A stretch of 64,000 bases of DNA from a virus (lineage: Duplodnaviria > Caudoviricetes), in IMG/VR virus record IMGVR_UViG_3300030620_000004, positions 1-64,000 of that record, one strand, 5' to 3'. Under the pieces are notes generated by a model that saw only the letters and a list, made by a program, of their open reading frames with translations, did not search any database and was not told where the DNA came from. Positions within the stretch are counted from its first letter, which is position 1, and each line of letters opens with the position of its first letter. The translations under genes and the position numbers were made by a program. Positions 1-2,975 of the stretch are shown piece by piece.

Positions 1-15
1 ATCCCGGGTTTCCAT
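1..15. repeat. Partial copy of the dispersed palindrome (ATCCCGGGTTTCCAT), cut by the window start
   Basis: Matches the right part of the ATGGAWCCCGGGWTTCCAT motif found at 7 other sites. Confidence 0.8.
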
Positions 16-55
16 GAATCGCAGAGGCCCCGCCATCAGGAGGGGAAACCTGGAC

Positions 56-165
56 GGGGCCGCTGCAGAGTGCATCGACGCAAGTTCTACAGCGGAATGG
101 GAATGGGCTGCGTTCGCCCAGCGCTCTAGATGCCCTGCTTCAATGGGGCCGCTGTAGAACTTGCG
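56..165 (-). CRISPR. Degenerate single-spacer mini-array / crRNA mimic with type I-G (I-U)-like repeats
   Basis: Minus strand reads ...CAAGTTCTACAGCGGCCCCATTGAAGC (165-137), then a 37-nt spacer (136-100), then CATTCCGCTGTAGA...TCTGCAGCGGCCCC (99-56). A CCGC..GCGGCCCCATTGAAGC ending is typical of I-G repeats. Confidence 0.6.
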
Positions 166-188
166 CACAACCCCATCATACCTCACCG

Positions 189-464
189 TCACTCATCAGG
201 CAGGTCGAGCGCGGCTCTGAGCGCAGCGTCCCTGCCTTCGAGCAACTTGCGCAAAGAGGTATCCCGCTCGTCGCCCTTCGGCAACGTCAACACCGAGAAC
301 GCCAGTTGCTCGAACGCGACTGACACCTTGCACAGCGGTGGCTGCAAGTGGTCCGACTTGAAATGGCGCATGATGGGCTCGCCAAGCGCCGCATAAGTCT
401 CGGGGCGGAGCACGTAGTCTGGGGGCTCTCTCGGGTCGATTTGGGGCTCCTCGGGGTCGGTCAT
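189..464 (-). CDS. Small conserved phage protein, possibly an Acb2/Tad1-like helical hairpin (anti-defence candidate)
   Basis: HLQPPLCKVSVAFEQLA...LPKGDERDTSLRKLLEGRDAALRA resembles a recurrent phage motif (HLP..L..VS..F..LA...LP...ER..ALRKLLEAKDAAVRA). Confidence 0.5.
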   Translation of the reverse strand: MTDPEEPQIDPREPPDYVLRPETYAALGEPIMRHFKSDHLQPPLCKVSVAFEQLAFSVLTLPKGDERDTSLRKLLEGRDAALRAALDLPDE

Positions 465-529: not shown

Positions 530-2287
530 TCAACGGGCCGACACCATCGCGACCCCGCCCTGGCCAGGGCGGGGCTTGCTCAAGGCCCCCGATTGGCGCG
601 CTTGCTCGCGCGCAAGCCAGCTGCTCATGAGCTCGTCGCCCGTGTGCTTGTTCGGATCGTAATAGAGCATCGAGTCGATCCAGCGTTGCACTGCCTCATG
701 CACGCCCCCAATCGGGTCGTTCGGAATGAGCCAGATGCCGCCTTCGATCTCGATAAACATGCTCTCAACGCCGTGTTCCTTGTTGCTCTTGTTTTTGCCC
801 GTCGGCACGCCACGGATCGGAAGGCTCTTGTTGCGCTCGCGAGCCCACTGCCTGAGGAAGTCCTGCGCCGCGTTGTTCTCGACCCGGATGATTGAGCCGT
901 ACGCCTCGAAGTGCATCGTCAACAGGTCGATGACGGTCGAGCCATCGTAGCGCCCCGAGTCGATCCGAAGGATGCGCCGGTACTGGTCGGGCAGCACAGC
1001 AAAGGTGAACAGGCTCGTTCGGTTGTTGCTCTTGCGCTTGCCGACGGCAAGGTCGACGCCCGTGAACGTGCGCCCCTGCGTCGTCGGGTCCCACTTCGCA
1101 GTGAACGTGAAGATGTCCCGCTTGCGCGCCTCTTCCTTGCAGGCTTCGATCCAAGCGACCTTCACCTTGCTGTCCTCATCCGAGCGGCATTGGCACCGAT
1201 ACAGCTGGTTGTATTCAGCCATCGCCGTCCGGTAGTCGCTTCGCAGCCGCTCAATCTCGGGGCGCCCGTAGCGCTCGGGCCACAGCGGCACAGCGTCGTA
1301 GCGGTCGACGAACTCGGCAGTGCGGCGCTCAGGCGGGAGGTGCCGCTGGTCCGGGTCGTAGCGGGGGTGGTCGTGCGCAACGAGCCGGTACGACTTGCCC
1401 TTGGTGTCGCCCACGAACTCGTCGTCAGGAAAGTCCACCAGACTCGGGCGGATGTCGTCGCAGTCGAAGACGCCCTCGGCCGGCAACAGCGCTCCGTCGA
1501 CAAGGTCCGTCTCGCACGTGTTCGTCAAGTAGATGTTGCCGTCGATATCCATTGTGATCGTCGGCCACCCCGCTTTCTCGAGCGTGTACGTCAAGTCGTT
1601 CGGGTCCCACGGCGTGTTGGTCACCACGAGCTTCGTTCCGTGGATGTCGCGCCGGCTGAGCACGGTCGAGTTGAACCAGCGATTGACATCGAGAATCTGT
1701 TCCTTCGTGCCTGTGTTCTCTTCGGTCAGCAAGTCATCGACGAGAATCCAGTTCAAGCGAGCACCGGGCAGCTTCGCGTGGAAACCCACCGCCGCCAGCG
1801 ATGGGTCGCGAATGCCTTGCGGGCGCTGCACCGTGATGCGACTCTGCGTCCACGGGTCCTTGATGTCGGGAGACTGCTGCAGTTCTGGATACACCAGACG
1901 CAGTTCGGGGCTGCTCTCGATGTAGTCGCTCACCATGCTGAGCGGCTTCTGTGCCTGCCCCTGGCTCGCCGAGATGATGACTCCGCGCGTCGTCGCATTC
2001 TTGCCGAGCAAGTACATCGAGAGCCCCGCCATCATGTAGCTCTTGCTGAACCCAACTGGCAGCCGAATCACGCACCGATCGAAGTGCTCGACGAACTTGA
2101 AGACCACGCGCTGAAACGGCAAGCACTCGATGCGCTCGCGCGACGTCTCCTCGCGCACGACGAACGAGAAAAAATCCCGCGAATTGCGGCGAGCCTGCTT
2201 CGCAAGCCGCAACACCTTGTCCTTCGCCTGCTCCAACAACTGGACCTTGCGAGCGTGTGAAGCGAAGCCTGATTCGTTCACCTGCAT
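530..2287 (-). CDS. terL: Terminase large subunit
   Basis: ATPase with divergent Walker A (PVGFSKS) and Walker B (ILVDD), LWPERY motif, RNase H-like nuclease GVDLA, C-terminal HTGDELMS. Start at 2287 (MQVNE) fits downstream of the 2298 stop. Confidence 0.9.
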   Translation of the reverse strand: MQVNESGFASHARKVQLLEQAKDKVLRLAKQARRNSRDFFSFVVREETSRERIECLPFQRVVFKFVEHFDRCVIRLPVGFSKSYMMAGLSMYLLGKNATTRGVIISASQGQAQKPLSMVSDYIESSPELRLVYPELQQSPDIKDPWTQSRITVQRPQGIRDPSLAAVGFHAKLPGARLNWILVDDLLTEENTGTKEQILDVNRWFNSTVLSRRDIHGTKLVVTNTPWDPNDLTYTLEKAGWPTITMDIDGNIYLTNTCETDLVDGALLPAEGVFDCDDIRPSLVDFPDDEFVGDTKGKSYRLVAHDHPRYDPDQRHLPPERRTAEFVDRYDAVPLWPERYGRPEIERLRSDYRTAMAEYNQLYRCQCRSDEDSKVKVAWIEACKEEARKRDIFTFTAKWDPTTQGRTFTGVDLAVGKRKSNNRTSLFTFAVLPDQYRRILRIDSGRYDGSTVIDLLTMHFEAYGSIIRVENNAAQDFLRQWARERNKSLPIRGVPTGKNKSNKEHGVESMFIEIEGGIWLIPNDPIGGVHEAVQRWIDSMLYYDPNKHTGDELMSSWLAREQARQSGALSKPRPGQGGVAMVSAR

Positions 2288-2297
2288 CAGGAGCCTT

Positions 2298-2975
2298 TCA
2301 CTCGGCAGCTGCGAGCACCTGAAACACTTCCTCACCCTCGGTCAAGAACGCCTCAAGGTCGTCCTCGCTCATCGACCCGAGCACCTGCGTCAGTGCGTCA
2401 CGCACCGCTTCGTTCGCGTCCAGCACGCTCACGCGAATCGGCGCCATCGTCCCTTCGATCTTGGAGAGCAGGGATTCGTGGCTGTTGATGTCGCGCCACT
2501 TCTTCTCACGCTGCGCTCGCATCAACCCGAGGTCCCGTCGCAGCCGCACGATGGCCTCTGCTCTCGCGTAGCTCGCACCCTCCTCGCTGTCCTTGCGCCA
2601 CGCGGACTGAATCTCATGCACGAAGAACCGCGTCTGCGTCGCGCTCATCAGGTACCGGTCTTCGCACTGCCGCACGATGTCGCTCACGGGCACCCCGCCC
2701 ATCATCATCGCCAGCACCACCCTGCGCCGGCCATGGGCAACATCAGGCGGAGTCTTGCCCGACTCGAAGACCCCTCGCAGATTCACCCCCGTCTCGGGGT
2801 CGGTTTCAGCTGCACCCCGGTCAGTCCGTTCGAGCTTCCCAATGTGGGCATAGCCGTTGCGCGGCGTGGAGACGGGCTTGCCGTCAGAGCCCGCAAACGG
2901 CTTTGCGCGCAGTGTTCGTTTGGGCCCGCTGCGCTTCCTCGACGTGGCGGTTCCGCCTTTCTCTGGACGGCTCAT
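2298..2975 (-). CDS. Putative terminase small subunit
   Basis: Immediately upstream of terL; HTH-like segment followed by helical oligomerisation region. Confidence 0.55.
   Translation of the reverse strand: MSRPEKGGTATSRKRSGPKRTLRAKPFAGSDGKPVSTPRNGYAHIGKLERTDRGAAETDPETGVNLRGVFESGKTPPDVAHGRRRVVLAMMMGGVPVSDIVRQCEDRYLMSATQTRFFVHEIQSAWRKDSEEGASYARAEAIVRLRRDLGLMRAQREKKWRDINSHESLLSKIEGTMAPIRVSVLDANEAVRDALTQVLGSMSEDDLEAFLTEGEEVFQVLAAAE

Follow-up and report, generated by a model that had tools for sequence, protein, structure and literature searches.

What is the role of a single spacer placed between the two halves of a host-type CRISPR repeat in a phage that has no cas genes? This question is raised by positions 56–165, minus strand, of a 64,000-nucleotide stretch of phage DNA (hereafter, the window) that opens IMG/VR virus record IMGVR_UViG_3300030620_000004, which is 86,186 bp long and has a G+C content of 62.8%. 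The analysis shows that the element is derived from a type I-G repeat, and it also establishes the architecture, the recurrence with covariation in other viruses, and the absence of cas genes. We interpret it, with a probability of roughly 0.55, as a type I-G CRISPR unit that the phage carries with a single spacer and no cas genes, and in which the repeat takes a split, "circularly permuted" form. The presence of 13 similar units on other viral contigs suggests that phages borrow or block the I-G immunity of their hosts by means of a compact RNA.

Layout of the unit and its type I-G origin

Re-reading of the minus strand reproduced exactly the layout given in a preliminary description of the locus: CGCAAGTTCTACAGCGGCCCCATTGAAGC at positions 165–137 is followed by a 37-nucleotide spacer (136–100) and then, at 99–56, by CATTCCGCTGTAGA-(16 nucleotides)-TCTGCAGCGGCCCC. 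The inverted repeat between 79–95 and 149–165 is perfect (17 of 17 pairs), as had been reported, and gains an 18th pair between positions 78 and 166. This pair is G·U in this copy of the locus and G–C in the other terminal copy of the record and in three other assemblies; both alleles at position 78 (T or C on the minus strand) pair with G166, so that the closing pair is kept. Positions 56–69 and 145–158 form a direct repeat with 13 of 14 positions matching. According to our own arithmetic, a perfect 17-bp inverted repeat within 100 nucleotides is expected by chance approximately 1e-3 times per 64 kb at this base composition, and an exact 18-mer match to a CRISPR repeat end at most approximately 1e-5 times per 86-kb genome. 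The parts of the locus are as follows.

Positions 175–180, minus strand: −10-like box TATGAT; the hexamer starts 14 nucleotides upstream of arm A, and the −35 is weak.
Positions 149–166, minus strand: arm A, consisting of a phage-specific extension (166–155) and then CAGCGG (154–149), which in the I-G repeat is the 3′ strand of the stem; with arm B it forms 18 bp.
Positions 145–148, minus strand: CCCC linker; cleavage by Csb2 is predicted between C145 and A144.
Positions 137–144, minus strand: 8-nucleotide 5′ handle ATTGAAGC, with which all repeats of the I-G arrays found end at their 3′ side, as does the I-G repeat of M. barkeri.
Positions 100–136, minus strand: spacer of 37 nucleotides, a length like that of array spacers (71–75 nucleotides from start to start with a 36-nucleotide repeat).
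Positions 96–99, minus strand: CATT, the 5′-terminal nucleotides of the repeat; arrays have ATTT, GTCT, or CTTT before CCGCTG, and the sister units described below mostly ATTT or TTTT.
Positions 78–95, minus strand: arm B, consisting of CCGCTG (95–90), the 5′ strand of the repeat stem, and then the complement of the arm A extension; position 78 is polymorphic.
Positions 70–77, minus strand: linker of 8 nucleotides.
Positions 56–69, minus strand: third element TCTGCAGCGGCCCC, which repeats the 3′ stem strand and CCCC but has no handle; it can pair with 95–86 or, in the lowest-energy fold, pairs with 32–21.
Positions 21–32, minus strand: 3′ arm of a downstream GC-rich hairpin, an inverted repeat that pairs with 66–55 and is not followed by a U-run.

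The upstream half is without its own 5′ stem strand, and the downstream half is without a handle. Jointly, they amount to exactly one repeat that is interrupted in its loop and set around the spacer, across which the two stem strands pair. No contiguous repeat of approximately 36 nucleotides with its own hairpin is present, the downstream copy having 24 nucleotides where arrays have 8, and the unit is derived from a repeat without itself being one. The downstream GC-rich hairpin may be a 3′-end or terminator-like structure. An Rfam scan of the locus (E values up to 10) and a tRNA scan found nothing relevant.

The 18-mer CAGCGGCCCCATTGAAGC at positions 154–137 (minus strand) is identical over its 18 nucleotides to the 3′ end of a CRISPR repeat of approximately 36 nucleotides, and the CATT-CCGCTG that follows the 37-nucleotide spacer is the 5′ start of the same repeat. 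A scan for this 18-mer, as CAGCGGCCCCATTGAARC, across one genome per prokaryotic species found at least 60 loci. In at least 13 genomes or metagenome-assembled genomes (MAGs), it was located in regular arrays, with 5–55 copies each at a spacing of 71–75 nucleotides; the carriers belong to the Acidobacteriota, Planctomycetota, Myxococcota, Burkholderiales, Verrucomicrobiota, and Limnochordales, together with one cyanobacterial MAG. Several seemingly single hits were arrays whose repeats differ by 1–3 bases, and the other approximately 30 single hits were without the stem, in a number close to the chance expectation. The repeat of these arrays, approximately 36 nucleotides long, consists of GTCT, ATTT, or CTTT, then CCGCTG, 8 variable nucleotides, CAGCGG, CCCC, and ATTGAAGC, so that the I-G signature given in the preliminary description (a CCGC..GCGG stem and a ATTGAAGC end) is found as CCGCTG-(8 nucleotides)-CAGCGG-CCCC-ATTGAAGC in many genomes.

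A Cas4g/Cas1g fusion (NF049935) adjoins three of the arrays (L106, L074, and L089), with scores of 727–743 bits against a curated cut-off of 560, and Csb2 (PF09609) was above its cut-off in three of five array-bearing genomes. Because some of the arrays adjoin Cas4g/Cas1g and Csb2 is present in three of the five array-bearing genomes, we assign the repeat family to type I-G; the type I-G reading proposed earlier was therefore borne out by comparison of the repeat halves, the 18-mer matching genuine I-G arrays. The published I-G repeat of T. sulfidiphilus is 36 nucleotides long with a 7-bp stem, and Csb2 cuts 4 nucleotides 3′ of the stem base, leaving an 8-nucleotide handle (bioRxiv 10.1101/2022.08.08.503147); the M. 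barkeri I-G repeat ends in ATTGAAGC (PMC10504553). The geometry of the phage unit (stem, 4 nucleotides, and 8-nucleotide handle) agrees with this cleavage site. The phage itself was said to be free of cas genes, and searches of its genome for Cas4g/Cas1g, Csb2, Csb1, and Csx17 indeed gave no match, while the search for Cas3 returned only an 11-bit helicase hit.

Sister units and the long-range stem

The 18-mer was also found in one other IMG/VR contig (L109), where it is followed by a 36-nucleotide spacer, ATTT, and CCGCTG. The stem of this unit has 25 bp (at least 23 bp on the first count), and its arm sequences are unrelated to those of the phage studied here. The wider pattern GCGGCCCCATTGAARC-N38-43-CCGC occurred in 44 viral contigs, which include arrays, canonical repeat–spacer–repeat mini-arrays, and units with the long-range stem only. 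Apart from the phage's own, 13 units are of the last kind, with a long-range stem of 10–30 bp and no second 3′ half; two of them are located on one contig, and one is common to two contigs. The CCCC linker is invariant in the arrays and the viral units, the search patterns having demanded it. The arms of the sister units are unrelated in sequence yet always pair, and their spacers, like those in arrays, are 34–39 nucleotides long.

Thirteen of the 24 unique single units have at least six pairs beyond GCGG/CCGC, whereas swapped-arm controls had a mean of 0.75 pairs and a maximum of 6, with 0.36% reaching at least 6. In an anchored alignment of 14 units, an 18-pair helix was formed with 84.5% of its cells paired, compared with 55% in shuffles (0 of 500 reached the observed value), and the covariation score for these 14 units was 0.764 versus 0.18, slid controls not exceeding 0.18. 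In each of the 14 units, the long stem belongs to the fold of lowest energy, and in 13 of them arm A is not preceded by a 5′ strand of its own. The stem enclosing the spacer had been called atypical in the preliminary description; it is instead the architecture that is conserved, with covariation, across a family of viral units. Sigma-70-like promoters lie directly upstream of three sister units (L110, TTGACA-17-TAGACT; L131, TTGTCA-17-TATCAT; and L136, TTGACC-18-TATGAT), with their −35/−10 pairs at the same position as the TATGAT box of the phage studied here, and T-runs follow arm B in some units. From their sequences, the sister units resemble small-RNA genes that are complete in themselves. 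A search for Csb2 in five other unit-bearing viral contigs was negative, and a generic scan for this architecture across 460 kb of this genome and its relatives returned only this locus, in addition to two or three weak G·U-rich artefacts.

The second hairpin of the locus (95–86 with 69–60), which had been reported with an enlarged loop, bears on a different way of processing the RNA. If this hairpin with its 16-nucleotide loop were a working downstream repeat, the unit would be a canonical two-cut mini-array, in which cuts after both CCCC motifs release an 89-nucleotide CRISPR RNA (crRNA) and the 18-bp stem is a switch or a by-product. The third element does copy the stem strand and CCCC at 13 of 14 positions, the lone irregular pair of the hairpin is, as had been observed, a G·U pair only in the minus-strand RNA, and canonical repeat–spacer–repeat mini-arrays of the same repeat family occur in other viral contigs. 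However, with the upstream half-repeat missing its own 5′ strand, the long stem would still be required for the first cut. Furthermore, the lowest-energy fold combines the arm A–arm B stem with the 69–56:32–21 hairpin at −96 to −97 kcal/mol, whereas forcing the 95–86/69–60 hairpin gives −88.6 kcal/mol and is approximately 8 kcal/mol less stable, and the third element is present in none of the 13 sister units. The second hairpin can pair, as had been read, but it is an energetically minor fold that is found only in this phage, and we consider two-cut processing improbable. A switch between the two folds, notably after the first cut or with the help of protein, is possible, with the second hairpin predicted as the minor state. 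The third element may be the remnant of a complete downstream repeat or may now be part of the 3′ hairpin.

Several individual loci show further variation. The 100-kb contig IMGVR_UViG_3300046698_000540 carries two split-repeat I-G units with different spacers, at L109:7560–7665 and L116:290–395 (both minus strand), with stems of 25 and 30 bp, respectively. In L148 (3555–3680, plus strand), the unit is followed directly by CTAAAGC, which resembles a handle, and by a sequence that nearly repeats the unit's spacer: the first 17 nucleotides are identical and the later mismatches fall mostly on every third base. Possible explanations are a self-protected target and a second unit in decay. The 51-kb viral contig L132 (IMGVR_UViG_3300027657_000004), from the same metagenome as one assembly of the phage studied here, has its own split-repeat unit with a different stem, of the type CCGCGCGG. 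The spacers of the units often hold internal palindromes or short hairpins (the phage's own at 136–100, L112, L146, L110, and L121), such as TCTAGA and AGCGCT in the phage's own spacer and GAGCGCG...CGCGCTC in L112. The related contigs L111, L112, L115, and L126, with duplicates, carry canonical I-G mini-arrays at one locus, where the spacers differ and the second repeat ends in a degenerate handle, ATTGAGAC; judging from these sequences, the pattern looks like spacer turnover.

Proposed processing of the RNA and its possible guide or decoy role

In the layout described above, the loop is where one host-type repeat is divided: its 3′ half (CAGCGG, CCCC, and ATTGAAGC) precedes the spacer, its 5′ half (CATT and CCGCTG) follows it, and through the phage-specific extensions the halves pair over 18 bp. 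For transcription, cleavage, loading, and biological outcome, we infer the following course. Transcription of the minus strand would start at the weak TATGAT box or result from read-through of the terL operon. In the transcript, the long stem would rebuild the CCGCUG/CAGCGG duplex together with the single-stranded CCCC and handle, as recognized by host Csb2, the sole difference from a normal repeat hairpin being that the helix continues on the loop side. A single Csb2 cut after CCCC would then produce AUUGAAGC-spacer-CAUU-CCGCUG..., still annealed to the leader fragment. With its 5′ handle, native-length spacer, and 3′ stem with Csb2 bound, this product would have the layout of a mature I-G crRNA, obtained from one cut, and could be assembled upon by host Cas7 and Cas8g. 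That the spacer length is conserved argues for the importance of Cas7 assembly.

Most likely, the phage uses the host I-G Cascade with this RNA as a guide against a competing element or a host locus, the main alternative being a dead-end decoy complex. In its full form, the proposal is that these units constitute a distinct class of phage guide-RNA genes, in which a single I-G repeat is permuted around one spacer, the extended stem serves as the Csb2 substrate, and one cut gives a two-stranded, functional crRNA that re-programs the host I-G Cascade. This full form is put forward tentatively, at somewhat less than even odds.

The decoy alternative holds that the RNA acts like a Racr, an RNA anti-CRISPR: host Csb2 would bind and perhaps cut it, Cas7 would coat it, and the resulting non-productive complex would tie up I-G subunits and weaken immunity, with the spacer carrying no information. 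Trapping of Cas6f and Cas7f by viral mimics of the repeat is documented (PMC10651486), and Csb2 stays on the repeat hairpin with nanomolar affinity (bioRxiv 10.1101/2022.08.08.503147). Stems of up to 30 bp and a two-stranded product could block normal maturation, and a target was found for none of the three spacers searched. On the other hand, a decoy needs only the repeat, whereas the units retain an insert of 34–39 nucleotides, an intact handle, and the 5′ nucleotides of the repeat, which is all that a guide needs; moreover, the spacers differ among the related canonical mini-arrays L111, L112, L115, and L126 in a manner resembling turnover. A decoy function alone is accordingly possible, though unlikely.

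The searches for targets and hosts bear on both roles. The spacer search that had been proposed was run against the phage's own genome, phages, and I-G host loci, and no protospacer was found. The spacer matched nothing else in its own genome or in any of the loci collected, gave only chance hits in INPHARED (E of approximately 2), and returned zero hits in pattern scans of IMG/VR and of the Joint Genome Institute (JGI) metagenomes. Comparison of all unit spacers with all loci yielded nothing convincing. In 60 I-G host loci, there was no promoter match of the phage's spacer, and seed matches were not enriched (31 observed versus 38.5 in shuffles), the locus of the true host not being available for comparison. 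Conversely, none of 227 spacers from the I-G arrays found had a match in the phage. The exact stem of the phage, TACAGCGG, had a single match in the JGI data, which was a coding sequence and not an array, and two phylum samples of approximately 400 genomes each contained unrelated stems only.

Several of these results weigh against the interpretation of the locus as a CRISPR unit that engages host Cas proteins. No protospacer was found for its spacer in its own genome, in four related contigs (TerL 61–70% identical), in INPHARED, in IMG/VR, or in the JGI metagenomes; the spacers of L131 and L109 matched only themselves in IMG/VR; and no host array with the phage's exact stem was found among JGI contigs and approximately 800 sampled genomes. 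A promoter and terminator scan called no full sigma-70 site and no terminator at the locus, only a weak promoter. The 14 aligned units were picked for having stems, the unbiased figure being 13 of 24. In addition, the stem is here closed on the wrong side and is loopless, so that its acceptance by Csb2 is a prediction from sequence, and the two-stranded RNA left after cleavage could equally yield a non-functional complex. No target, host, or RNA data set that would separate the guide from the decoy role was found.

Genomic setting and relation to known viral CRISPR elements

Positions 1–205 of the window recur at 85982–86186 of the 86,186-bp record with a single difference, A/G at position 78. 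IMG/VR classes the record as linear despite this 205-bp terminal duplication. Other assemblies of the phage are circular permutations of the record with the locus in the contig interior, and the duplication is therefore an assembly overlap, the genome assembling as a circle with a single copy of the locus. The three other assemblies of the phage that were aligned all have an identical locus sequence, and the G variant at position 78 was found in L004–L006 and in run X12. A run search listed 18 DNA sequencing runs (soil and sediment) containing the stretch and no RNA sequencing run. In contigs from four runs of sediment studies, A/G at position 78 is the only change, and the contigs break within the inverted repeat.

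On the minus strand, the gene order is terL, a 91-amino-acid gene, the element, a copy of a 20-bp palindrome, small open reading frames (ORFs), and thyX. The neighboring features are as follows.

Positions 533–2335, minus strand: terL (phrog_38), 0.4 kb from the locus.
Positions 189–464, minus strand: 91-amino-acid gene (phrog_1761/phrog_5120, no assigned function), whose stop codon lies 23 nucleotides before arm A.
Positions 1–15, no strand assigned: part of the 20-bp palindrome ATGGAAWCCCGGGWTTCCAT, which runs on into genome positions 85977–85981; it is context, outside the CRISPR unit.
Copies of ATGGAAWCCCGGGWTTCCAT: window 1–15, 5556, 20569, 26497, 32312, 34459, 42398, and 59345; genome 67296, 73845, 76859, 81489, 83356, and 85977.

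This setting is relevant to the idea that the locus is unrelated to CRISPR and represents a gene for a 78-amino-acid protein, an ordinary terminator, or a packaging or terminal-repeat signal near terL. An ORF does cross this stretch, its GTGA overlapping the stop codon upstream, and the locus lies within the 205-bp terminal duplication, 0.4 kb from terL. The 78-amino-acid ORF was rejected as a gene: its G+C content at codon positions 1/2/3 is 0.67/0.54/0.67, compared with 0.81–0.85 at the third position in its neighbors, and it has no homologues in a protein search, belongs to no Pfam or PHROG family, and was left uncalled in three assemblies. The other assemblies, in which the locus lies inside the contig, weaken the case for a packaging or terminal-repeat role. 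As all such readings leave the exact repeat identity and the unit family unexplained, we regard them as very improbable.

Related genomes were sought in several ways. INPHARED contained no similar phage DNA, and a single-protein TerL search of IMG/VR gave no close relatives. A TerL profile search yielded 41 loci, all with at most 50% identity and none with the unit, and the related contigs L007 and L153–L155 (TerL 61–70% identical) carried neither the unit nor a protospacer. The unit occupies a variable intergenic spot, the relatives examined being without it, and no neighboring genes are common to this locus and the other unit-bearing viral loci. This variability, together with the negative searches for a host and a target, would suit an inert relic, that is, a fragment of a host I-G array gained by recombination and now without function. 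However, an array fragment running from loop to loop would pair over only 6–9 bp, whereas here and in the 13 sister units unrelated, covarying extensions give 10–30 bp; furthermore, the locus is identical in the three other assemblies, and the only change in the contigs of the four sediment runs preserves the structure. A relic is therefore hardly probable.

With respect to the neighborhood, the only isolated-phage match of the 91-amino-acid protein encoded between terL and the unit is a gene annotated "anti-TRAP domain" near the end of Ochrobactrum phage vB_OspP_OH, which makes it a candidate anti-defence neighbor. The palindrome ATGGAAWCCCGGGWTTCCAT has 13 copies in the 86-kb genome, one of them approximately 40 nucleotides downstream of the CRISPR unit, and also occurs in TerL relatives (two copies in L007, six in L153, four in L154, one in L155, and two in L047); it is probably a clade-wide regulatory or terminator site. 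A handle-like motif, GTGGCCCCATTGAAAC, lies upstream of terL in L154 (9118–9141, plus strand; TerL 64% identical) but lacks a partner arm, and the resemblance is probably due to chance.

Known viral CRISPR elements include mini-arrays, solitary repeat decoys, and crRNA-like regulators, and the phage unit differs from each of them. Virus-borne mini-CRISPR arrays (Medvedeva et al. 2019, PMC6858448; reviewed in PMC11656645), for which guidance against a competing element was shown, resemble the unit in that the carrier has no cas genes, one or two spacers are combined with a host-type repeat, use of host Cas proteins is presumed, and the phage versions have no leader. Their spacers are flanked on both sides by whole, sometimes degenerate, repeats, whereas the flanks here are half-repeats that pair through added complementary arms; the subtype here is I-G, and no target in a related virus was found. 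Racr or solitary repeat units (Camara-Wilpert et al. 2023, PMC10651486) are likewise phage small RNAs that mimic a CRISPR repeat without cas genes, and are often located just downstream of a promoter. However, a Racr is one intact repeat with no spacer, whereas the split repeat here encloses a 37-nucleotide spacer of native length next to an intact handle; a search by terms of the main text of that study did not find I-G mentioned.

Viral Cracr RNAs (bioRxiv 10.1101/2024.10.29.618823) and CreA/CreR or regulatory mini-arrays (Shmakov et al. 2023, bioRxiv 10.1101/2023.03.03.530964) are crRNA look-alikes that load host Cascade and act via the spacer, as proposed here. They consist of two degenerate repeats with short spacers (median of 19 nucleotides in viral I-F Cracr) that partially match cas or toxin promoters, whereas the unit here has a split repeat and a full-length spacer of 37 nucleotides rather than a short pseudo-spacer, for which no promoter match was found. 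Compared with the chromosomal I-G arrays (CCGCTG...CAGCGG-CCCC-ATTGAAGC), the repeat-derived parts are identical and the spacer lengths are the same, but in the phage unit there is only one spacer, cas genes are not adjacent, the order of the halves is swapped, and the stem has 18 bp instead of 6–9 bp. The searchable papers on viral mini-arrays, decoys, and regulators make no mention of I-G or of a split or permuted repeat held by a stem; they do not include the 2019 review that first catalogued viral mini-arrays, so that a prior description is possible.

The locus and its 13 sister units add a fourth design to the ways in which phages use CRISPR parts, beside whole-repeat mini-arrays, solitary decoys, and short regulatory look-alikes, and broaden this use to type I-G, which has been studied less than any other type I system. 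If the permuted-repeat reading is true, it would represent a natural way to express a crRNA from one repeat with one cut. If Csb2 cuts the rebuilt stem, Cas6-type enzymes would need only the base of the stem and its 3′ flank, not the connectivity of a hairpin; the units would offer a natural template for very compact guide cassettes in I-G genome-engineering tools; and pipelines that detect whole repeats would be missing a class of viral CRISPR-derived RNAs.
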